NCBI RefSeq assembly: GCF_030144855.1
Contig: NC_082713.1
Coordinates: 63,488,001-63,552,000 of the forward strand
DNA from: Hypanus sabinus
Taxonomy: Eukaryota
Length of the DNA stretch: 64,000 bases
Direction of reading: 5' to 3'
Both the position numbers and the translations under genes were made by a program. A model generated the notes under the pieces. The model was not told where the DNA came from and did not search any database. It was given only the letters and a program-made list of their open reading frames with translations. Below are positions 4,946-64,000 of the stretch, in pieces; within the stretch, counting starts at the first letter, position 1, and each line of letters starts with the position of its first letter.

Positions 4946-5150
4946 TGTAGGGTAATGCAATGGTTGGAAACATGCATAATTCACAACCACCGACATTGAG
5001 ATGTAGTTCACTTTAAGAGGTTGATTTGACATGATGACATGAAGATTTTACTGCTTTTTATGTTCTGCGTTTGATTGACAATAAAAGTGAGTTTTAACGG
5101 TTTCTCTTAAACTTAAAACGCCTCTGCTGTTATATTTACGAAAACCTACA
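4946..5150 (+). repeat. 3' LTR of the Gypsy element at 2072-5150
   Basis: Preceded by purine-rich ggggag. Runs tgtagggtaa...aaaacctaca, contains aataaa, and is followed by TSD gtag. Confidence 0.85.
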
Positions 5151-5499
5151 GTAGATGGATGCCTCTCAGACTGGAAGCTTGTGACTAATGGAGTGCCACA
5201 GGAATCTGTGCTGGGTTCATGTTGTTTGTCAGCTATATGACCAATCTGGATGATAATGTGGTTAACTTGATCAGCAAATTTATAGATGACACCATGATTG
5301 GTGTGTAGTGGTTAGCAAGCAATGCTATCAGAGCTTGCATTGGGATCTTGGCCAGATGGAAAAAGGGCTGAAAAATAGCAGATGGCATTTTATGTGGCGA
5401 AGTGTGAGATCTTACATTTGGTAAGACCAACCAGAGTAGGGCTTACACACTGAGGAGTGCAGTAGAGCAAAGGTATTTGAGAATACAGTGGCGTCACAG

Positions 5500-6227
5500 T
5501 GTTGGCCAGAAAAAACTGCAGTCCGATCAAGCACAGGGAATGCAGACAAGGATTGTCTGTGGACACAGGAATGTGGACACAGGAAGCTTCAGGTAAGGAT
5601 CTGCTAAACCTGAGGCCATTCTCAATCAAATTGTTATGTAAAGGGCGTGGCCTCTGAACTGATCCATGCTCTGGGACAATCTAATCAGGGCAATATACCT
5701 GAGACCATTCTCAGGAGTAGCTACTTGTTATGTAAAATACCAGACCTGCAATCTGTAATCTTGTTAGACTCTGTCTGGGTTGCCTCAATTAACTGGTTTG
5801 GACCAGTCAGAATGTAAAGACAGAAATACACAAGGCTAGGGTGGGCAGAGCTATAAAACAATGTTGGCTGTAGCCCTGTACAATGACCAGTAAGAAGGTG
5901 ACCCAGGTAGGTCAGGTGACCTTCAGCCAATGGGATGGAGATCCAGTGGGTCTCAATGAGGAACAGTATAAGACTCAGGAGCTCCAAATACTCAGGGGTG
6001 ATAACTCTCCAGCAGCCAGAGACCAACTATTGCGGATAAGGAGGACCCCACGGACATGAGATGGAAACCACGAGGAACGCCTGGTCAGCGTGGACTCCTT
6101 ACCTGGGTAATGTCCTTTTCTCTTTATTAACTGTTCATGGACTGTCAGGGAATTCTGGTAGGGTGCTCACACAGCGAAAACTTGTGAACCCACGTGCTTT
6201 TAGTTGAAATGATAAAAGTTACTTGTC
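5500..6227 (+). repeat. 5' LTR of the ERV-like element (U5 end deleted)
   Basis: Highly similar to 9969-~10752 up to ...gttacttgtc, then joins directly to RT sequence. Confidence 0.85.
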
Positions 6228-6232
6228 AGGCC

Positions 6233-8815
6233 CAATATGTAGATGATCTGCTCCTGCAGACCAAAACCAAGCAGGAACATTATCAGCTGTTGACAGAACT
6301 GTTGGAATTATTATTTGCTTTGGGACTAAAGGTAAACACTAAAAAAGCATAGGAAATGAGACAAGAAGTTAGTTATTTGGGAATGATCTTGCCTCTGGGG
6401 AAAAGAGAAATTGATAAGCAAAGAGTAGAATTGGTTATGAAACTGCCAATTCCCCCGAGACCTGAAAGGGCTGCAGTCCTTTCTGGGGTGGGTAGGATAC
6501 TGTAGATATCTCATTGATGGATTTTCCACTAAGGCAGCTCCTTTAATGGAGTTACTGAAAAAGAATGTGGCGTGGGGATGGAAATCAGAACACACTCGGG
6601 CCATCACAGCTCTGAAGCAAGCATTGGCCACGGCGCCTGCTCCAAAAACCCCAAATCCAAATGAGCCATTCTCATTGGCGGTGGCTACAGCTGATACCAC
6701 CCTCTCAGTAGTGCTGTTACAGGAGCCGCATGGGAAGTTAAGACTAGTAGCGTATGCATCAGACATGTTCTCACCAGCAGAACAGGGGTATACTGTATGT
6801 GTTAGCAGTTTTCTGGGCAGTACAACATTTTGCCTACATAGTGGGACTTAATTCACTTACAATACTGACAGAACATACCCCCATACAATTACTGTTAGAT
6901 GGAAGGATTAAAGATAGATAGCCAAAATAGAATTGCTAGATGGACATTGCTACTGCAAGGAAGAAATATTAGTAAAACGTGAGTAAACACTACTTCCATG
7001 TTAGCTGACAACCTGGTGTACCAAGGAAGTGAACATGAGCGTCAAGTTATGATAGCAAATGATCCCAGGGCCCATTTGTACCAAAACAAAAAAGAGGGGT
7101 TCGAAGCAGATCAGATAAATAATGACTGAGAACAAAGAAACAAAGGTAAAAGAAAAACCCTACTTTAAAATTTTTGTAGATGGCTCCTCATTAGTGCAGG
7201 ATGGAGGGAGAAGAACTGGGTGTGGCATATACGTAGAGGATGAACGTGGCCAGGAAAGGTATAGTATCGCTTTAAAGTTACCCAAAACCATGAGTGCACA
7301 GGCAGCAGAATTGGCAGCTGTAGCATATGTGGTTAGCCACCCAGAACATTTCCCGCCAGGGTCGATCGTACACTCTGATAGTATGTATGTTTGTAACAGC
7401 CTTACAGAATGTTTGCCTCTGTCGGAAGCCGGAGGCTTTGTTTCAGTTGGTGGGAAGCCCCTCCCATCTGCTGCTCTATTGCAATATATATTTGAAGAGG
7501 CAAAAAGAAGAGAATATGGAGTAGTAAAGGTGAAAGCCCACTCCAGATTATCTCCTGAAGGAAATAGAAAGGCTGATGAATTGGAGAAGTAAGATGCTTC
7601 ATTTGGGCCAGAATGGCAGCCACAGATTGGGGAGATTGGGAGGCAGAAAGAACAATGGATTAAGGTTATGGATTTAACAGAGGAGCAGAAAAACTATAAA
7701 GAATTTAAAAAATGATAGAAGGTGCAGGGTCTGTAATATACAAAGAGCACAAGGGTGTGTTTGTCAAAGATGGAGTTGTCCTTCATGAAGGTAAGTTTGT
7801 GGTTCCAGAGGAAGAAATGAGATGATCCATTGCTACCATGATCTATGGGGACACCAGCGGTGCAAAAGCACCCTGGAAAACATCAAGGAAGTGGGCTGGT
7901 GGCCTAAGATGATGGATGATGTGGAACATTATGTCAAAAATTGCTTGATTTGTGCACAATATATCCTGATAGAAATGTAAAGGAAGGAGCCTTTCGACAC
8001 GCCAGACCAGTGGAAGAGCCTTGCAGATAGATTATGTTGGTCCCTTACCACCAACCCCTGGAGGGTACAAATATATTCTGGTAGTAATAGGTACCTTTAC
8101 GAAGTGGGTGGAAGCTTTCCCAGCTAAGGTAAACACAGCAAAGGCCACTGCAAAAATCCTATTGGAAAGGATATTCACTTGCTGCGGACTACCCTGGAGT
8201 ATTGAATCAAATCAAGGCACACATTTCACGGCCCGGATAATGCAAGATGCCATGGCACTTCCAGAGATGGTTCAGAGATTTCATATGCACAGTCCAGTTG
8301 AATGGTGGATAGGATGAATGGACCAATAAAAAAAAATTATTGCAGAAGTGGTGCAACAACATGGCAAGAGGTTTTGCCTTGTGCCTTGATGATAATGAAT
8401 ACAGTGGCATCTTCAACTGGTTACACCCCATATAAACCCACGACCAGAAGGGACATGAGAGGATTGGAGGAGTTGTTAGGATTAGATAACTCAGAACCCG
8501 AAATCAATGGGATTGTCAGAAAAGTGGGTACAACAATTGGTAGAGACAGTGAAAGAGGCCAATTATGTGGCAGCCCACCAAATAGGAAAGAAAAAGCAAC
8601 AAAGTAAAGCCTACTTTGACTCAAATTCAGTCCCATAGAATTAAGACCAGGATAAATAGTGATGATTAGAATACACCAACCCACCTCATTTTTAAATCCA
8701 AGGTTTGCAGGGCCTTGTGAAATTATAGACTAAGCAAACCCTTCAGCGTGCAAAGTACTGACTTCTCCAGATAAAAGTGGGTGGTACCATATCAACCAGC
8801 TGAAATTGGTGGGGG
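6233..8815 (+). pseudogene. pol: pol remnant of the ERV-like element: RT C-terminal half, degenerate RNase H (tether), retroviral-type RNase H, integrase
   Basis: RT: QYVDDLLL and LQSFLGWVGYCR. Tether: FSLAVATADTTLSVVLLQEPHGKLRLVAYAS (6546-6851). RNase H: IFVDGSS...SAQAAELAAV...HSDSMYV...VKVKAHS...GNRKADEL (7122-7592). Integrase: HxxxGH/CxxC, QIDYVGPLP...FTKWVEAFP...ESNQGTHFT (8021-8317) and a PRFAGP...WYHINQLK tail. Multiple stops and frameshifts. Confidence 0.88.
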
Positions 8816-9192
8816 AGAAATGATATCACCATCGGTACATAACAATTGATGTACATGCTGGCCCTGATTTGGAAGACTTGAGGATGGAACAACTGTTCCA
8901 AGAAGATGGGAACAAACCCTATCAAAGGGATGATATGTAGTCCCCTCATCCTAGGACCCAGGACATTTTTGTCAAAAAAAACAAAGAAAAAGAAAATAAG
9001 CCAGTGCTTGTTCCTCCCATCCTGAAACAAAACTGGGTGAGGAAAGACGGATGGCTCGAGTCCAAAGACATTTGGGAGCTTAGATTGGATAGATTAGAAA
9101 CACAGATACAAAATATGGACTTAAAATAATTTAAGACTTAAGCTGGAAATAAGAACAGATAATAACCTTGTGGATTACAGGTTTAATTCAAC

Positions 9193-9836
9193 ATGAAGAG
9201 AATAATGTATTTTGTTGTGATGGCATTAACCATGACTGAGGGCATGGTCAGTTTTGTTCTAGAGCCAGTACAGCAGACAAACATGTCAACAGTGATATCA
9301 TTGCTTGGAAAATACTCAGTGAACAGAAATAAGTCATCTCAATTGACATGGGTAATACAGGCTAACAAAGGAGAAATGGAGGACTCAAACTTGTATTATA
9401 CACATTACTGAAGGAGAACTTCAAGATCCAACACACTGATACATATGAGTATCTGTGGGACTATGTTGTTACTGAATTGCCATCAATTTCTCACTTCACC
9501 ACAGACTGGACGCGTGTTGTGGTCCTAAGAGGCAAGAGAGTTAATACATCAATGGCCTAAACACACTAAACTAATTAAAACACATGCTGGTAAGGCAAAT
9601 GAACTATTGAGTAACCCAGGCTTTTGAGTAAATTTTGGAACTGGGGGACAAATCTTCAAATACATCTATGGGTAAGAATAGTATCACGTGCTGCTGTAAT
9701 ACTAATTTTATGTACCCTGATAATTGTATTGCTCAATGTATATCAACTAAGAAGATGGAAGGCTGAAGTAATGGGAAAAAGCAAGGACAATGAAACTGCA
9801 GAGATGATTCAGTATGGAATGGGTGAATTTAGTTAG
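9193..9836 (+). pseudogene. env-like remnant (signal peptide and C-terminal transmembrane segment, internally deleted or disrupted)
   Basis: It lies between the integrase and the PPT/3' LTR. ORF 9193-9411 starts with signal-like MKRIMYFVVMALTMTEG and has N-X-S/T sequons (NMS, NKS). ORF 9624-9836 has a Trp-rich stretch, then hydrophobic AAVILILCTLIIVLLNVY, then basic residues. Confidence 0.6.
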
Positions 9837-9968
9837 TAAATGTTAATATTTTTTATAGAATATAAGTGTTGCACACCTGCTGGGTTCCATGGCAGTCCTA
9901 TCAGCAGTCAACTGAATGAGAGGAGGATAACAATCCTGATAAATAGCTTTGGCTCAAGAGGAGGGAGA

Positions 9969-10812
9969 TGTTGGCCAGAAGAAACTTCAGTCTGATAAAG
10001 GACAAGGGAAGCAGACAAGTCAGTTGTCTTTGTTTCCCCCATTTTGTGGATTCTGAACAGTTTCTTGCTCTTGGATAATCTAATCCTAGCAACTGAATGT
10101 GGACACAGGAAGCTTCAGGTAATGATCTGCTAAAACTGAGACCATTCTCAAACAAATAGCCATTTGTTATGTAAAGGGAATGGACTCTGAACTGATCTGT
10201 GCTCTGGGACAATCTAATCAGGGCAATATACCTGAGACCATTCTCAGAGAAGTAGCTACTTGTTATGTAAAATACCAGACCTGCAATCTGTAATCTTGTT
10301 AGACTCTGTCTGGGTTGCCTCATTTAACTGGTTTGGACCAGTCAGAGTGTAAAGACACAATTACACAAGGCTAGGGTGGGCAGAGCCAGGAAACAATGTT
10401 GGCTGTAGCCCTGTACAATGACCAGTAAGAAGGTGACCCAGGTAGGTCAGGTGACCTTCAGCCAATGGGATGGAGATCCAGTGGGTCTCGATGAGGACCA
10501 GTATAAGACTCAGGAGCTCCAAATACTCAGGGAAGATAACTCTCCAGTAGCCAGAGACCAACCATTGTGGATAAGGAGGACCCCACGGACATGTGGAGAT
10601 GGAAACCATGAGGAACGCCCGGTCAGCATGGACTCCTTTCCCAGCTAACATCCTTTTCGGTTCATGGACTGTCAGGGAATTCTAGTAGGGTGCACACAAA
10701 GACAGCTTGTGAATCCACGTGCTTTTAGTGGGAACAATAATAGTTACTTGTCGGTAACTACAGATCCTCTGTGCCTTACTGATCATTATTTCAAGGGGTG
10801 ATTCTTGTAACA
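9969..10812 (+). repeat. 3' LTR of the ERV-like element (~844 bp)
   Basis: TG...CA ends, PPT immediately upstream, TSD acag downstream, homologous to 5500-6227. Confidence 0.9.
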
Positions 10813-10890
10813 ACAGGTAGATAGCTTTTTAAAGAAACCTTTTGCTACATTGGTCTTCGTTGATCAAAATATTGAGTACAGGATCAAAAT

Positions 10891-11009
10891 CATGAGAAAG
10901 TCTGCAGATGCTGGAAGTCCAAAGCAACAAACAAAAAATGCTGGAGGAACTCAGCAGGTCAGGCAGCATCTATGGAAATAAATAGTCAATGTTTCGGGCT
11001 GAAACATTG
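10891..11009 (-). mobile_element. Short Penelope-type (pLTR-derived) insert with a degenerate hammerhead motif
   Basis: Sequence tctgcagatgctgg...aaatgctggaggaactcagcaggtcaggcagcatctatgg...gtttcgggctgaaac, inserted in CR1 with a duplicated agtacag. Confidence 0.65.
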
Positions 11010-12394
11010 TACAGATCATCAGTACAGAAGTTCAGATGTTATGTTCTATCTGATGTTGGTGAGGTTTAATTTGGAATATTGTGTGCAGTTTTGTTTACCT
11101 ACCTACAGGAAAGATGTAAATAAGATTGAAAGTAAAGAGAAAATTTACAAGGATGTTGCTGGGACTGTGGGAGCTGAGTTATAAGGAAAGATTGAATAGG
11201 TTAGAACTATTCCGTAGAATGTAGAAGCTTGAGGGGAGATTTAACAGAGATATACATAATTATGAGGGGTAAATACAAGCAAGCAGGCTTTTCCCACTAA
11301 ATTTGGGTGGGACTACAACTAGAGTCATGGAAGGTGAAATGTTTAAGAGGAACATGAAAGAAAGCTTCTTTACTCAGAGGGTGGTGAGAATCTGGTACAA
11401 GCTCCCAGTGCAAATGGCAGATGAAATTTCAATTTTGACATTTAAGAGAAGTTTGAATAAGTACATGAATGGGAGGCATGTGGAGAGCTATGGTTCAGGT
11501 ACAGTTTGATAGATCTAGACTGTTTAAACTGTTTGCTATGGACTAGATGGGCCAATACTCCTATTTCTATGCTGTAGTTTTCTGTCTTTATGACTACCTT
11601 ACTGATTTGTCCATTAAAATCCCATTCTTCAGGCAACATATTCATTTTCCACCACTAGCCTGATAATTGTAGGCCCACTTGGTATCTGTGCTTCTCTACT
11701 TTGATTGGACAATACTTTTTTCTGAAGAGTTATGGAAGTAGTTTGTCCTTGCCCATCAGGACCCAAATCCCAGAGCAGTGTTGCCTTTTAAAAATATTCA
11801 GCATTGAGTTTTGAGGCATCAAAACAGGTACTTTGCCCCATCTAAACAAAAGTCATGCCAGTTTAAATTAATCTCACTTACCTCTGTTAATTGCATATCC
11901 CTCTGAACCCTGGGCAAATGCCTCTTAAATGTAATTTGTTTCTGCCCCCACCAACAGAAGAGACTTACTCAAGATGAAAGAATTAAGTTCTTCCAGTGGT
12001 ACATGACAAGCTACGAATTTGTGGTATGGAAACTATTCCTGTTGTTGAGATGCCCTGTGTTCCTCCAGGGACCCTATGGCCAAAAAAATGTGATCAATGG
12101 CTAAAGGTCCCAGGAAGAACCAAAGAATGTCATGTAACCCATTGATGGAAGACTTGAAAATGGCAATGGAAATATCCACAAAGACTTTGGGAGTTGGATG
12201 GATCTTCACTAATATATAGAGTTTTGTCAATGTCCTGAAGTCCCACACTAAATGGCTAGTTATGGTCATACAGGTACATCCAGTAATGGAGTGCTGGAGC
12301 GTTGCCAATGATTTATTTCTTTGTCATCCACAGGAACTGATATTTTCCACCATCTTAAGAATCTGAATTTTCCTCATTGATCTGATATATATAC

Positions 12395-16583: not shown

Positions 16584-18529
16584 TGTAGCGGTGTGCTACA
16601 CGCAGTGCTAAAATAACGACATGGAGTCGGTAAAATGCAGTCAAAGATAATTTTATTCGAACTTCACAGCCTTGCTTTAAAGCCTCCCTCATCCCGCCCT
16701 CTCCGGGCGCGGATGCTCCAAGAGACACGTACTCACGAACCCCCGCAGGCTTTCTCCCTTTGTTGTGGACTTGGCCTTTGTGCCTGCACGCTGGCTAATT
16801 GTGAGCCAGTTCAAGTAAGTGTGCTAGGAAGTGGGTCACCACATAACCCCCCCCACCCCCAGAACCGGCGATACACCCCCCAATGGCCACAGTCTGGGCA
16901 GGACCCTGTTTGGGAGGTCGGTCTCTGCACTGAGGTGCCGGAAACTCGACCGGTTGTGCCAGGTCCACATGGGTCAGTTTGAGTCGGTCCACCATGAAAA
17001 CCTCCTTTCTCCCCCCAACGTCCAGCACGAACGTGGACCCGTTGTTCCGGAGCACCGTAAACTGCCCCACGTAGGGCCGTTGCAGCGGTGGCTGATGCCC
17101 GCCCCTTCATACAAACACAAACTTACAGTTCTGCAGGTCTTTGGGTACGCAAGTTGGGGTCTGCCCATGCTGCAAAGTGGGTATGGGGGCCAGGTGACCG
17201 AGCCTCTCGCGTAGTCTGCCCAGGACTGCTGCGGGTTCTTCCTCTTGCCCCCTTGGGGCTGGTATGAACTCCCCGGGGACGACCAGGGGTGAGGCGTACA
17301 CCAACTCAGCCGACGAGGTGTGCAGATCATATTTGGGCACCGTGCGGATCCTGAATTTGACCCAGGGAAGCTCGTCTGCCCAGTTAGCTCCTCGCAGGCG
17401 GGCCATGAGAGCCGACTTTAGGTGACGGTGGAAATGCTCCACCAGGCCGTTCAACTGTGGGTGGTAGGCAGTTGTGTGGTGTAGCTGTGTTCCCAAAAGG
17501 CTGGCCATAGCTGACCACAGGCTGGAGGTGAACTGGGTGCCTCTGTCGGAGGTAATGTGGGCTGGTACACCAAAACGAGATACCCAGGTTGCAATCAGTG
17601 CCCGGGCACAAGATTCGGAGGTGGTGTCGGTGAGCGGGATCGCCTCTGGCCATCTTGTGAACCGCTCCGCGATGGTGAGGAGGTGCCGCGCTCCACGCGA
17701 CTCTGGCAGGGGGCCCACGATATCCACAGGAATGTGATCGAAATGCCGGTGGGTGGGTAGAACTGCTGTGGCAGAGCTTTGGTGTGCCGCTGCACCTTGG
17801 TCGTTTGGCAGTGCATGCACGTTCTGGCCCATTCGCTGACCTGCTTGCGGAGTCCGTGCCAAACAAACCTGCTGGAGACCATCTGGACGGTTGTCCAGAT
17901 GGAGGGGTGCGCCAAGTTATGAATGGAGTTGACGGGGCTGGCCGGTGGCGACGTCACAGAGTAGGGTCCTCTCACCTGGGCCTACGGGGAGGTCCTGGAG
18001 CTGCAAACCGGAGACTGTGGTTCTGTAACTCAGGATCTCCTCATCTGCCTGCTGTGCCTCTGCCAGTGCCTCAAAGTCTACCCCTTGGGAAAGGGCATGA
18101 ATGTTAGGGCGAGGGAGTGCATCGGCTACGACATTGTCCTTACCCGAGACGTGCCGGAACCATAGGTGAGGTCGTAGCGTCCAGAAGCTTGGCAGTTTCA
18201 ACGAAACCGCATGAACAGATGTGGTGTCGGTCATCTCTGGTCCCAAAATTGTTTGGACCATCGGGGTCACCAATTGTAGCGGTGTGCTACATGCAGCGCT
18301 AAAATAACGACACGGAGTCGGTAAACTGCAGTCAAAGATAATTTTATTCGAACTTCACAGCCTTCCTTTAAAGCCCCCCTCATCCCGCCCTCCCCGGGCG
18401 CGGATGCTCCAACAGACGTACTCACAAACCCCCCGCAGGCTTTCTCCCTTTGTTGCGGACTTGGCCTTTGTGCCTACACGCTGGCTAATTGTGAGCCGGT
18501 TTGCGTGTGCTAGGAAGTGGGTTGCCACA
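16584..18529 (-). mobile_element. Internally deleted Ty3/Gypsy LTR retrotransposon (gag N-terminus fused to RNase H end, plus integrase)
   Basis: Near-identical LTRs at 16584-16843 and 18275-18529. tRNA-Trp PBS (tggtgaccccga on minus) at 18261-18272 and a G-rich PPT near 16846-16860. ORF 17917-18273 reads VSLKLPSFWTLRPHLWF|RHVSGKDNVVADALPR. Integrase FDHIPVDIVGPLP...RFTRWPEAIP...ITSDRGTQFTS...YHPQLNGLVE is in 17107-17862. Confidence 0.92.
17107..17900 (-). pseudogene. Gypsy integrase (DDE core, frameshifted)
   Basis: Contains VDIVGPLP, SDRGTQFTS and HPQLNGLVEHFHR motifs. The HHCC region (HNLAHP...CMHC) is in the adjacent frame 17595-17975. Confidence 0.88.
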
Positions 18530-39607: not shown

Positions 39608-40574
39608 TGTAAAATGGAAATAAATAATGGAGAGCAAGAAAACTGTTACATTTGTTCTAAATAAACCTAAACTTGGCATAGGTTTACAACAGAACATTTG
39701 ATCCAAGCAGAAAATGGAGAGAGGGGGAGGTAAAGATATGTTTAGTGATAACATCTCTTTGGAAGTGGTGGACATTGAGTACAATGATGTGTCGGATCTA
39801 AAGGCTGATGGGGTGGTAGGTAAGGGCAAGAGGAACTCTAGCTTGTTATTATAGCATAAGCTATTTAAATTGCACACTTGTGTTTCCATCACCTATCTTG
39901 TTTGATACTTATAGAAATCCTTTGCATAATAAGATGAGTGCACAATACCACAGGACTGATTTGAAAAATGATGATCAAATTTGTGGGAGAGATATGGTAT
40001 GGTTTTGAAAATGGATTATGCTTGACTTGGAGAAGAAGTCTGGTACAGATACTACTTGTAGCAAATGAGACTGAAATCAGAACTATTAATCATTTCATTT
40101 TGTGTATTATATACATTAGCCATTGGTATGGACCCAGAATATTCATATCAGAAGACTTTGAAATAGTCAAAGACCCTTACCAAAGAACTTGAAAGCACAA
40201 GTTTTTAATTCAAAGTAATAAACGCCACTAAATGAGCATTAGCTAACATAGCATAACAAAACATACCATGTCACTTTATCAGGGTGCACTTGCCATATAA
40301 ATAATGTATGCATTCCAGATAAGGTAGAATCACACTCCCTGAATCGTTGTTATTTCTCTACTTGCAGAACAATTAATAATTGTGAAGAGGGTAATTGTTG
40401 GAACCCTCTTCTCAATTTTTACTTACTTTGCAAGTAGAAAAACAATGAATTAATTGGAAAACATATACATTAATTGTTAAATTACAAATAATATACTTGC
40501 TTTGTTCAGTTTTTTGATAATAGTAGTTTATCAAAACTACTATTTTGATTTTTTATTTAGCGTAGGTAAATAAA

Positions 40575-41220
40575 GGATCCGCCTTGCCTGCCTGAACTCC
40601 GGGATCCGCCTTGCCTGCTTGAACTCCGGGATCCGCCTTGCCTGCCTGAACTCTGGGATCCGCCTTGCCTGCTTGAACTCCGGGATCCACCTTGCCTGCC
40701 TGAACTCTGGGATCCGCCTTGCCTGCCTGAACTCTGGGATCCCCCTTGCCTGCCTGAACTCCGGGATCCGCCTTGCCTGCCTGAACTCCGGGATCCGCCT
40801 TGCCTGCCTGAACTCTGGGATCCGCCTTGCCTGCCTGAACTCTGGGATCTGCCTTGCCTGCCTGAACTCCGGGATCCGCCTTGCCTGCTTGAACTCCGGG
40901 ATCCGCCTTGCCTGCCTGATCTCTGGGATCCGCCTTGCCGGCCTGAACTCCGGGATCCGCCTTGCCTGCTTGAACTCTGGGATCCGCCTTGCCTGCTTGA
41001 ACTCTGGGATCCGCCTTGCCTGCCTGATCTCTGGGATCCACCTTGCCTGCCTGAACTCAGGGATCCGCCTTGCCTGCCTGAACTCAGGGATCCGCCTTGC
41101 CTGCCTGAACTCAGGGATCCGCCTTGCCTGCTTGAACTCTGGGATCCGCCTTGCCGGCCTGATCTCTGGGATCCGCCTTGCCTGCCTGAACTCCGGGATC
41201 CGGCTTGCCTGCTTGAACTC
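40575..41220. repeat. 27-bp minisatellite, about 24 copies (gggatccgccttgcctgcctgaactcy)
   Basis: Direct tandem array with single-base variants and no spacers. Most units carry GGATCC. It explains ORFs 40553-41041, 40619-41407 and 41111-41299. Confidence 0.97.
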
Positions 41221-41378
41221 TAAGACTCTCTCGGAATTCCAGCATCACCTTGACACCTTGGTCCCTCAGACACCTTGGTCTCCACATCTTGTCTCTCATT
41301 TAGCTGTTCCCGTCCTGCCCCTAGTACTTCAGTGCCTGCGTCCTGCGCTTGGGTCCAGCCTCCTGTCCCTTTATGACA
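41221..41378 (+). repeat. Probable 3' end of a Gypsy-type LTR adjoining the minisatellite
   Basis: Reads ...cttcagtgcctgcgtcctgcgcttgggtcc...ttatgaca and ends TGACA like the solo LTR at 28233-28686. Confidence 0.5.
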
Positions 41379-41774
41379 AATTATTGATAAAGAATGTACA
41401 CTTTTAAGTGTATCTCAAGGGAGTAGAAACTTGTTAAAAGGAAACTACTCAGCATTTAATTAGGAAACTAAAGTAATAATATTAATTGAATAAAACAATC
41501 TTCCACAATGAAAATGTGCTTTGCTTGGTAGAGTCCAGTTTACTATCTAACCTGAGAAAATTGTTATTGATTCATAGGATGCTTGGTCTAATCCAAGTCC
41601 CTGAGATTGTGAGTCCTGGCAGCCGATCCCAAAATACTGAGAACAAATATTTATATTTTAGCCATTTGATTCTATGGCCTGGAGAATGGTAAATCACCAC
41701 CATATTGCCTTGTTGTTGGACAAGTCCCATTTCAAAACACTAAATGAATATTTAATTGTTTTAAAGAGCGTATT

Positions 41775-61115: not shown

Positions 61116-61489
61116 CGATACATTGTGTATGTCAGTATAATACAATCTGATTGTTGCAGTCCTGGTGTTCAATAGGGAGTGGATCTTCTGCTTCATCTAT
61201 TATTTCTGGTTAGGAACACCTGCATTGGTGTTTTTGATACACAAGGTGAGCTAGAATGGAGGGATCCGTATTCACAGTTACAGATGTTATGTTGATTATA
61301 TTGCCTCCTCTTTAAATACATCAACATTCAACCATTATCTGCAGTTTGAAGCAAGTGAAACAAAAATGTACAAAATACATACCTCAAGTAAATCTTTTAT
61401 AAATACAACAGCAGAAATAATCATGTATTCAGTTATTTATTTCATGTTTTACATCCATTAAAAGCATAATATTTAATAACCTGTGTTTA

Positions 61490-64000
61490 TGTAACACCCT
61501 GGGAATGGTCTTTCTGCAGAAGCAGTGTTTTGGTTATGGTTAGAGTTAACGGGTGCTTTGGAATGTGAGCCGTCCAATGAAGAAAGTGTGTTTTCATGTT
61601 GTGTGCCTGACACCAGGGTGAGCTGGGTTTTTTTGTTTGGTGGGAGATGAAGGGAGAAGATGCTGGGGAGAAGAGGTTGTAGGACTTGACCTGGAGCAGG
61701 GCCATGATCTGACGAAACCTGGGGAGATTGAAAGAGAACAAAAGAAGAGGAGGGTAAAAAACATCTTAGCCATTCCGAGCCTGTTGGAGTGAGGTAGGAT
61801 GCAAAATGAGAAGAGGCCTTGCAGGCACTGAAGGAGCTGCTGACACAGGTGCCTGTGCTGGCTTCTGCAGACCTCTGGTTACCGTATGTACTGTACATGG
61901 ATGCCAGCAGAGAGGGCTTAGGTTGTGTTCTGTATCAGGATCAGGGCACCAGGTTGAGACCTGTTGTGTTTGTCAGCTGGCATCTGCAGCCCTCTGAAAA
62001 CAGCTATCCCATGCATAGATTGGAGATTCTGGCATTGAAATGGGCTGTAGTGGATAAGTTGAGTGACTACCTCTATGGTGCCAAGTTTGAGGTGAGGACA
62101 GACAACAATACCCTAATTTATATCCTGACCTTGGCGAAATTGGATGCCACAGGTAATTCGTTGTTGGTGGTGTTGACTGCCTATGAAGTAGGAACATTTA
62201 CTCTGATGCTTTGTCCCAACACGTGCATGAAGGGCTGGACAGGGACGAAGAATGGGAGAGCGTTCCTGCCTTGAAAGTGAAAGCCATGTACCAGCTTTCC
62301 ATTGTGGTGAAGACAGAGAGAAGGTAAGGGCAGGATCGAGCAGTAGATCAAGCAGGAGCTTCTGATGGCGCTATTCCACAAGCTTAATATAACCTGATTG
62401 CTCCGAAGACAAACCATTTACCAGAGTTGAGTCATGGGGAAGTGGCAGTTACTCAGCAAGATGACCCAGGAATTGGTACCATTTAGTCAGCAGTCGGAAA
62501 GTGAGACATGGCCCAAGCGGAGAAGATGAAACACGTTGCGGAGCCTCCATTATTGAGAGAATGGCCCAGATTGGAGTTGAGGAATCAGGTCTTATACTAG
62601 GTCACGTCACTTCTGGACAGGCCTCGGTGTTCCCGGCTGGTTCTTCCTATGAAGTATCGGAGGATTGTGTTGAAGTCGCTTCATGATGATTCTGGACATT
62701 TGAGGGTTGAAAAGACCTATGGATTTCTCAGAGATTGGTTCTACTGGCCCCAAATGAAGCTGGAGGTCGAAGATTACTGCAAGGTGTGCATTTGATGTAT
62801 ACCGAAGAAGATGTTGCCTAGGAGGGCTGCTCCATTGTCCCACTTGCAGATTGCAAGGCCCCTGACCTGGTCTGTATGGATTTCCTGTCAATAGAGCCAG
62901 ATTCCAGCAACATGGTGAATGTCTTAGTCATCATGGATCACTACACCAGATATGCGCAAGCTTGGCGTCTATGGTGGCCAAAGTGTTATGGGAGAAGTAT
63001 TTCTATTATTATGGCATCCCCAGGTGAATGCATAGTGATCAGGGATGAAATTTTGAGAGCAGGCTCATTCATGAGTTACTGAATATGCTCAGAGTCGGAA
63101 GTCAAGGACTATGCCTTATCACCAGCAGGATGATTCCCAGACTGAGAGGTTTAATTGGACCTTGCTAGACATGCTTGAAACCTTGGAAATCAGCAAGAAG
63201 ACCAAATGGAGTCAACATATTGGACATCTTGTCCACTGCTACAACTGTACATGAAATGAAGTTACCGGATACTCGCCATATTATCCAAGGTTTGGGCACA
63301 AGGCGAGGTTGCCCATTGACCTTTGTTTTGGGACTGGCGAGGAAGACCTGTCACTGAAGACTTAACTGAAGTATGTGTCTGATATGCAAAGGGAGCTAAA
63401 AAAGACTTATGAATTAGCTGAGGTCGCAACTGCCAAGCAGAATCAAGGAAATAGACAAGATATGATCAAATGGTGAGGTTCTCCCAACTCATGCCTGGGA
63501 GATCAAGTCCTCATAAGGAACCCGGGGCTCCCTGGGAAGCCTAAATTGGCTGACCACTTGGCGGCTATGGCCCATGTAGTGGAGAGTCAGATGCCAAACT
63601 TATCAGCTTTCCTGCTGAAACTAGAGGATGGGAATGGGCCTGTCAAGATTCTCCTTCGGAACCATCTTCTGTCTCGGGGACAAGGGGTGCAGTTTGATCT
63701 GGAGCCTGACCTGGAGACTGCACCTGGTAAGAGGACTCTGCAGTGACATGGATGACTGAAGGACCAAATGAGAGGAGAGAATAGACTGGCCCCCACCCCA
63801 AATGGGATTTGGACTCGGAGGATGAAGAAATGAGGGTGTGATATATGCTACCTTTTGTTAACTCCCAAATGACTGAGGAAGAGATTCCCAACCCTTCTTG
63901 TGCTGAGTCGTGAAATTGGGGGACTATCTGTGGACAGACTGGGTTTCAGCAGGACCATGAAGAGTTGAAGTAGGATTCAGCCAAGTGACAGAGGGGTCTG
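61490..64000 (+). mobile_element. Deleted Ty3/Gypsy LTR retrotransposon (truncated 5' LTR joined to RNase H-integrase); runs off the window end
   Basis: Starts tgtaacacc. From ~61795 it gives ALKELLTQVPVLASAD...YMDASREGLGCVLYQ...LEILALKWAVVDKLSDYLYG...RTDNN. Integrase HDDSGH...FYWPQM, MDFLSIEPD...VIMDHYTRYAQA and HSDQG...ERFN follow. Confidence 0.88.

Follow-up and report, generated by a model that had tools for sequence, protein, structure and literature searches.

Which retroviral lineage does the provirus at positions 5500-10812 of the DNA analysed here belong to, and what kind of envelope protein (Env) did its relatives carry? The stretch, hereafter the window, comprises 64,000 nucleotides of the Hypanus sabinus genome (NC_082713.1, 63,488,001 to 63,552,000), and a first-pass annotation had presented the element as a candidate lokiretrovirus. 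We conclude, with good though incomplete confidence, that it is a defective copy of an endogenous retrovirus (ERV) family likely belonging to the snakehead retrovirus (SnRV) lineage (class III, clade Huo), whose undeleted Env has a predicted paramyxovirus-like fusion protein (F) fold, likely shared with lokiretroviruses. The window copy itself cannot replicate.

Pol Remnant and Anatomy of the Family

The remnant of pol, on the plus strand like all features of the element, has the composition that had been proposed, since the motifs quoted are present in its translation and Pfam agrees. It includes the C-terminal half of the reverse transcriptase (RT; 6230-6530, with YVDD at 6236-6247, one stop and one frameshift), where the tail of RVT_1 matched at 6233 with an E-value of 8e-6, under the curated cut-off. 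This is followed by a tether, i.e., a degenerate first RNase H without the first catalytic Asp (6579-6815; RT_RNaseH_2, E 5e-15), by a second, complete RNase H (7167-7583; RNase_H, E 5e-15), and by an integrase (IN; 7813-8822) with its H2C2 part (7813-7959; Integrase_H2C2, 7e-15), core (8012-8254; rve, 4e-8) and SH3-like tail, broken by stops and frameshifts. The scan covered ten window pieces, four of which gave no match and one a weak DUF match alone. Stops or frameshifts were present in every gene of the window copy except the RNase H stretch. The integrase announced earlier is supported by its H2C2 and rve parts; for the tail, examined in a relative, the Integrase_p58_C and SH3_Tf2-1 matches were both below cut-off.

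The primer-binding site (PBS), gag and protease, deleted in the window copy, are known from its relatives. The window RNase H gave 151 matches in the genome (1066 candidates, 150 scored), and a search with the long terminal repeat (LTR), as had been suggested, was also made. The genome does contain fuller relatives, of 8.6-8.9 kb, with gag, PBS and env. Copies with both LTRs measured 8.2-8.9 kb and carried two LTR types; L200, a full-length copy of the window LTR type, spans 8,593 bp, has LTRs 97% alike and is flanked by a 4-bp duplication with one mismatch. At the four copy ends checked, the target-site duplication (TSD) was of 4 bp in three and ambiguous in one. The PBS matches tRNA-Asn(GUU), with 37 genomic matches, the six checked all being tRNA-Asn genes. 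Gag contains a coiled coil and a single zinc knuckle; the coiled coil lies inside the gag region, and no separate smc-like open reading frame (ORF) was seen in the decayed copies. The protease is an ordinary retroviral one rather than Spuma_A9. Of the 19 loci examined, 11 had the zinc knuckle together with either the protease or the stop ahead of it, in a shared frame in 9; a gag/pol stop was seen in 10 (nine TGA, one TAA), a layout which suggests that Gag-Pol is made by stop read-through. The window and its relatives together display LTRs, TSD, PBS, polypurine tract and the order gag-pro-pol-env, as well as the tether plus second RNase H of Retroviridae, for which SnRV and foamy Pol served as controls. 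From a mechanistic point of view, the founder would have primed reverse transcription with tRNA-Asn, produced Gag-Pol by read-through of the in-frame stop and Env from a spliced message, and generated a 4-bp duplication upon integration.

Placement of pol

The RT tree included 45 of 69 RT rows, after removal of partial rows and of near duplicates among the foamy, gamma, delta and clade members; the gamma and delta labels are assumed from motifs and recall. Four family copies fell within a clade of 13 rows, the others being frog, coelacanth, sea-turtle and unnamed sequences (support 97/92), and this clade was sister to SnRV (81/95), which is the RT clustering that characterises clade Huo, class III. 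The family stood outside the foamy clade (100/100), the ERV-L-like rows and the gamma/epsilon/delta clade (99/97), and the retrovirus side, family included, was separated from the outgroup (one Gypsy family) at 100/100. A retrovirus other than a Gypsy element or a gamma/epsilon ERV, as first supposed, is therefore what the tree supports, and its position on the class III side is in line with the deep branching proposed at the same time.

Pairwise comparisons also bear on this placement. The nearest RT proteins were from frogs, coelacanth and sea turtles (49-56%) and the nearest Env proteins from horn shark (67-69%), with other near proteins from other sharks, sawfish, skate and frogs, a pattern that fits an elasmobranch host. 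The window tether scored best with frog and unnamed clade members (41-44%), and the integrase core reached 53-57% with P0003, P0004 and P0006, against 42% with SnRV and 33% with Gypsy. When RT was compared with 35 viral contigs, a 10,688-nt SnRV genome matched best, at 50%, versus 36-40% for foamy viruses, WDSV (walleye dermal sarcoma virus) and gammaretroviruses; a search of the viral contigs with a single RT query gave no match. That genome matches the SnRV row in the accessible data of Wang and Han (PMC7947760). Family and SnRV RT are 50-56% identical, and the in-frame gag/pol stop and zinc-knuckle Gag of the SnRV clade are found in the family as well, read-through being presumed. The 'NYNRIN-like' names of P0003 and P0026 come from automatic annotation. 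Three public gene models (the sawfish 'pyrexia-like' model P0036, the horn shark 'fbxo15 isoform X3' model P0052 and the Xenopus model P0007) have Env or Pol pieces fused to other sequence, through either exonisation or annotation artefacts.

A number of results weigh against kinship with SnRV. Support for the sister position was below the starred level and SnRV forms a long branch; forcing the clade with foamy viruses cost 12.7 log units and was not rejected by the approximately unbiased (AU) test (p-AU 0.093). The best Protein Data Bank (PDB) matches for RT, RNase H and IN were foamy (three of three for RNase H), no SnRV protein being among the PDB matches. For the window RNase H and tether, SnRV scored no higher than WDSV or gammaretroviruses, and family Gag resembles SnRV Gag at the zinc knuckle alone. 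In the IN tree, the family lay near the same frog and unnamed sequences and not with SnRV; this result excludes the window IN row, which was void, the window IN being judged by the pairwise scores given above. Finally, the RT tree was built without Loki pol rows. Given the p-AU value for a foamy sister, the SnRV sister relationship is favoured, not proven. Of the trees that had been called for, RT thus provided an SnRV sister, but IN did not group with SnRV, and Loki and Odin references were absent from both. IN does not group with its SnRV counterpart in the tree, and Env scores its own at 3.7 bits only (see below); this mismatch shows that the family is a mosaic, and such kinship does not define a clade based on RT.

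ERV-L and XtERV-S are marked by YIDD, no zinc knuckle and a 5-bp TSD, as far as the available text of PMC8278194 goes. This affiliation was rejected, as the family has YVDD, a zinc knuckle and a 4-bp TSD. The genome also contains another class III family (L140-L149, e.g., G000:C25:179.35 Mb and C16:46.15 Mb), which has YIDD, resembles ERV-L by motif and lies on a long separate RT branch.

Envelope Architecture, Fold and Kinship

The window retains both ends of env, in line with the signal peptide and transmembrane (TM) helix that had been noticed in a third ORF region. The 5' remnant (9193-9400), with an ATG and a hydrophobic, signal-peptide-like segment at 9202-9258, can be aligned with the beginning of the undeleted env of C78 and of L198. 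The 3' remnant (9401-9836), which comprises a region resembling heptad repeat (HR) 2, a strong TM segment (9678-9734) and a tail, was aligned to L198 and to the full-length family Env, whose residues 607-726 it matches (E 1e-13). Fuller relatives do carry env, as had been anticipated: undeleted Env with a furin site is found in genome copies, and since L198 and L208 each hold undeleted env together with family RT, the pairing is not an artefact of mixed loci. A 733-codon env kept by a sister subfamily displays a signal peptide, an N-terminal part of approximately 200 residues, a KRRRR site, a hydrophobic peptide, heptads, a Cys-rich region and a TM segment. Two full-length open Envs of the same type, P0033 (739 aa, bamboo shark) and P0037 (723 aa, frog), are 26% identical to it.

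Searches of Pfam and of PDB sequences with family Env gave nothing significant. The 733-codon Env, searched against 1.8 billion representative proteins, gave 36 matches including P0057 (E 1.4e-5), which, compared by eye with the published rows in the accessible data of PMC7947760, is identifiable as a Loki Env; P0057 alone of 24 aligned members matched PF00523, and family Env did not. An Env model computed from the alignment, two Loki rows included, had a mean predicted local distance difference (pLDDT) of 69.7 and a predicted template-modelling score (pTM) of 0.50, the single-sequence model being unusable (pLDDT 37.9). The 44 PDB matches listed for the alignment-based model were all paramyxovirus or pneumovirus F (best E 7.5e-12), and its BFVD matches were F-like proteins, Env of walleye epidermal hyperplasia virus (WEHV) and WDSV, and feline foamy Env. 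A feature search gave top scores of 0.78-0.86 to spike, haemagglutinin, F and baculovirus F clusters, which are to be taken as leads only. The modelled structure therefore points to an F fold of paramyxovirus and pneumovirus type. A profile of 19 family Envs, realigned without the Loki rows, scored Loki Env at 63.4 bits, WDSV at 22.5, four foamy viruses at 1.4-10.4, SnRV at 3.7, and gamma and delta Env negatively, with shuffled-control maxima of 1.5-5.9 bits (5.9 for shuffled Loki Env). The likeness to paramyxovirus F known from lokiretroviral Env is found here too, the fold search and this score both bearing it out.

Some caution is nevertheless imposed by the modest TM-scores of the model to F (0.26-0.41), by the scoring of a single Loki Env cluster, and by the occurrence of F-like folds in foamy and WDSV/WEHV Env, owing to which closeness to Loki might stem from an ancestral env that evolved slowly, instead of from exchange. 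Indeed, there is a real possibility, somewhat short of an even chance, that F-type Env goes back to the ancestor of the class III, foamy, epsilon and Loki viruses and evolved slowly here, with no exchange with Loki. The matches of WDSV/WEHV and feline foamy Env to the model, the F-like layout of SnRV Env, as judged by eye, and the link between foamy Env and F drawn in the accessible part of PMC11468914 are consistent with such ancestry, but SnRV, the nearest pol relative, scored 3.7 bits where Loki, a distant one, scored 63.4. Moreover, lineage I of the elephant shark ERVs (CmiERV-I), in the same pol clade, apparently bears a gamma-type Env, by eye and in the accessible portion of its description (PMC4422223), so that env turnover in this clade has a precedent. 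Of the two readings, an envelope exchange between deep retrovirus lineages seems the likelier, with shared ancestry as a serious rival.

Other Affiliations of the Family

Assignment to the frog-and-shark foamy-like lineage XtrFLERV/CmiFLERV, a basal relative of spumaviruses, is unlikely, although the two may also be one clade under different labels. An early foamy reading was weakened once SnRV was compared. In XtrFLERV/CmiFLERV, a chimaera is grouped with X. tropicalis, and the closest named proteins found for the present family belong to frogs and sharks; NviFLERV is reported to be primed by tRNA-Asn, and the foamy PDB matches and the AU test are compatible with this affiliation. However, RT was closer to SnRV (50%) than to foamy viruses (36-40%), and the family shows none of the marks of Spumaretrovirinae, namely an A9 protease, a Gag without zinc knuckle and a Pol separate from Gag. 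Its gag and pol share one frame with a stop, which is not the case in foamy viruses.

A true lokiretrovirus, which would be the first in cartilaginous fish, appears highly improbable. The tether with RNase H, the coiled coil in Gag and the homology of Env to Loki Env would fit, and the six chondrichthyan genomes of Wang and Han are unstarred in the portion of their article available (PMC7947760). The recognisable tether, which had been read as pointing to a loki- or spuma-related lineage, is not a Loki mark, since SnRV and foamy Pol match the same Pfam family (RT_RNaseH_2). By contrast, family RT contains LPQGF and PTVA where the Loki rows, read by eye in the accessible data sets of PMC7947760, have [C/L/T]PFG and mostly SRWPM-like words, and over approximately 120 RT columns, again by eye, identity was roughly 60% with SnRV, as against roughly 45% with Loki-Oja. 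No exact match to a degenerate Loki RT motif was found in the H. sabinus genome, the viral contigs or the prokaryote genomes, although this is a weak test, and a Loki Env query found no match among the viral contigs. As the Loki RT motifs are absent, the family is not a lokiretrovirus, and its RT groups with sequences adjoining SnRV; the initial lokiretrovirus assignment is thus not supported for pol, Loki having been compared by eye, outside the tree, whereas a link to Loki does exist in env. That the element is an ordinary Ty3/Gypsy retrotransposon bearing one more RNase H can practically be dismissed, despite a Ty3-like integrase (E 1.5e-27) with a GPY/F-like tail, in view of the position of RT on the retrovirus side, of lower scores for Ty3 (54 bits) than for foamy RT (100 bits), and of an env with a furin site and a predicted F fold.

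Insertion, Deletions and Spread

The element begins with TG, ends with CA and is flanked on either side by ACAG (5496-5499 and 10813-10816), so that the boundaries first assigned to it were correct. The uninterrupted target site with a single ACAG occurs 882 times genome-wide, versus none for the reversed control, and the RT reading of a host long interspersed element (LINE), presumably CR1-like, continues on both flanks (5130-5495 and 10817-11580), both of which align over their whole length with an uninterrupted copy (L210). The 4-bp duplication suspected from the outset is therefore real and results from insertion into this LINE. The 3' LTR (9969-10812; 2015 candidates genome-wide, 40 scored at 84-100%), preceded by a polypurine tract also present in relatives (9956-9968), measures 844 bp, close to the 840 bp proposed for both LTRs, but the 5' LTR (5500-6227) is cut to 728 bp and aligns to 9969-10752. 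The two are identical in 662 of 713 aligned columns (Kimura two-parameter distance, K2P, 0.075), which gives 17, 75 or 171 million years at published rates of 2.2e-9, 0.5e-9 and 2.2e-10. This date is loose because divergence varies along the LTR, identity being 96% in the middle and 82-84% near the ends.

Two deletions of different history were distinguished. At the env junction (9400/9401), approximately 1,620 bp are missing relative to the undeleted copy L198, a loss which, by alignment, took out the cleavage site, fusion peptide, HR1 and Cys-rich core. Out of 258 candidates, 39 loci besides the window were scored, and all of them share this junction; 28 lie on large contigs, the remaining 11 on small contigs that may be duplicates. 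The env-deleted form therefore multiplied after loss of the fusion core. The junction between LTR and RT (6227/6230) was spanned by none of 39 other loci scored for it, hence a deletion private to the window copy; it removed the end of the 5' LTR, the primer site, gag, the protease and the front of RT, and likely followed insertion. At least five different env deletions were found among the copies fetched, and the fusion-core region is likewise shortened in two protein models from horn shark, through deletion or gene prediction. That family Env naturally lacks a fusion peptide was rejected, since undeleted envs exist in the genome. In the sequence of events that we propose, a sub-lineage lost the env fusion core yet multiplied, as its shared junction shows, and so likely spread within germ cells or with help in trans; the window copy inserted in the LINE roughly 17-170 million years ago, depending on the rate, and it was likely after this that the primer site, gag, the protease and half of RT disappeared from it. 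Another family copy (L029-L030, G000:C19:159.17-159.18 Mb) lacks the region from capsid to mid-RT and has a tandem duplication of the env end and 3' LTR; a similar doubled 3' LTR is seen in L202.

A Candidate Co-opted env

The open 733-codon F-type env (L053:1208-3409, i.e., G000:C28:118,004,207-118,006,408, minus strand) lies in a heavily decayed provirus: its LTR remnants agree at 76% (K2P 0.29), neither gag nor RT was matched, and what is left of RNase H and IN shows three stops over about 250 codons aligned. Its three tandem paralogues within 0.6 Mb are all broken. In a first, stricter look, it was the sole match of a Loki Env query in the genome. Four runs were compared with it. Gap-free contigs of run X1, which is only guessed to be RNA, cover it; one of them stops at an AG 11 bases before the env ATG, and the 64 letters beyond do not fit there, which hints at a spliced leader. 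The listed pieces over env were gap-free in X1, X4 and X6, those over the pol remnant having gaps, and no indels were listed in this env in runs of three organism labels. The X1 differences listed (40 of 229) included 13 in the ORF, nine of which were synonymous (p 4e-4, or 8e-3 allowing for transitions). The run search listed no run recorded as RNA that holds this env. We consider it, as a lead, a candidate co-opted gene. More broadly, and tentatively, an elasmobranch-and-frog lineage might pair SnRV-clade gag-pol with a Loki-type F env by transfer across the deepest split of Retroviridae, with a spliced and conserved 733-codon env co-opted by the host; we give this combined proposal rather less than an even chance. 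If true, this env would be a syncytin-like candidate of the F fold class, and we know of no member of that class among the domesticated envs of cartilaginous fishes.

Other Elements in the Window

A fragment of a Gypsy family, the RT-tree outgroup, lies at 61476-62271 (also L195 and L196); this family, which is likely young, has 15,851 candidates and numerous copies whose open frames reach some 1,980 codons. At 16584-18501, direct repeats about 1.69 kb apart and 94-96% alike flank a minus-strand integrase fragment, and constitute a small deleted LTR element. Units of roughly 27 bp form a long tandem array at 40543-41404, in which every frame is open.

Comparison With Known Systems

Our searches found no account of an F-type env in an ERV of the SnRV clade, nor of an elasmobranch env that had been co-opted, although subscription papers and supplements may hold one. 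F-type envs fall outside the gamma/beta-type survey of anamniote Env, and as envs of this family's type lack a Pfam match, such families are easily filed as env-less. The accessible text of Wang and Han (PMC7947760) leaves four scenarios for the origin of retroviral Env, since it finds Loki Env without overall similarity to other retroviral Env. A non-Loki pol combined with an Env homologous to that of Loki and, more weakly, of WDSV offers alignable intermediates for testing these scenarios.

SnRV and SnRV-like ERVs form clade Huo, class III, in the available part of Xu et al. (2018; PMC6001957). The present family resembles SnRV in its RT (50-56% identical, sister in the tree), tether plus RNase H, coiled-coil Gag with one zinc knuckle and in-frame gag/pol stop. 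It differs in that this stop is mostly TGA instead of TAG, in its primer (tRNA-Asn; the SnRV primer site differs in sequence), in its length (8.6-8.9 kb versus 11.2 kb for the SnRV provirus), in that no 3' accessory ORF was seen, in an Env without detectable sequence similarity and in an IN that does not group with SnRV. The primer of SnRV is tRNA-Arg.

By eye, CmiERV lineage I of the elephant shark (Han, 2015; PMC4422223, in its accessible portion) shares an SnRV-like pol in which the RT words are the same, a Gag with coiled coil, a zinc knuckle, the gag/pol TGA and an LTR of approximately 0.85 kb, but differs by its apparently gamma-type Env and other primer site. Lokiretroviruses (Wang and Han, 2021; PMC7947760, likewise in part) share dual RNase H and an F-like Env, homologous to that of the family, in which a signal peptide, an RXXR site, a fusion peptide, a coiled coil and a TM segment are found; they differ in RT motifs and placement and in an Env (571 aa for P0057, versus 733 aa) without the additional N-terminal part of about 200 residues. 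Some of them have an smc-like extra ORF, of which no separate counterpart was seen in the decayed copies here. XtrFLERV/CmiFLERV, known from pol only in the accessible part of Aiewsakun and Katzourakis (2017; PMC5512871), can be likened by description, through frog and cartilaginous-fish hosts and a pol that is foamy-like by similarity. If that identity were true, the lineage would get its first full anatomy. Amplification of ERVs without env was reportedly described by Magiorkinis in 2012. In line with this, env-deleted forms multiplied here, with the difference that at least five env deletions occur in one family.

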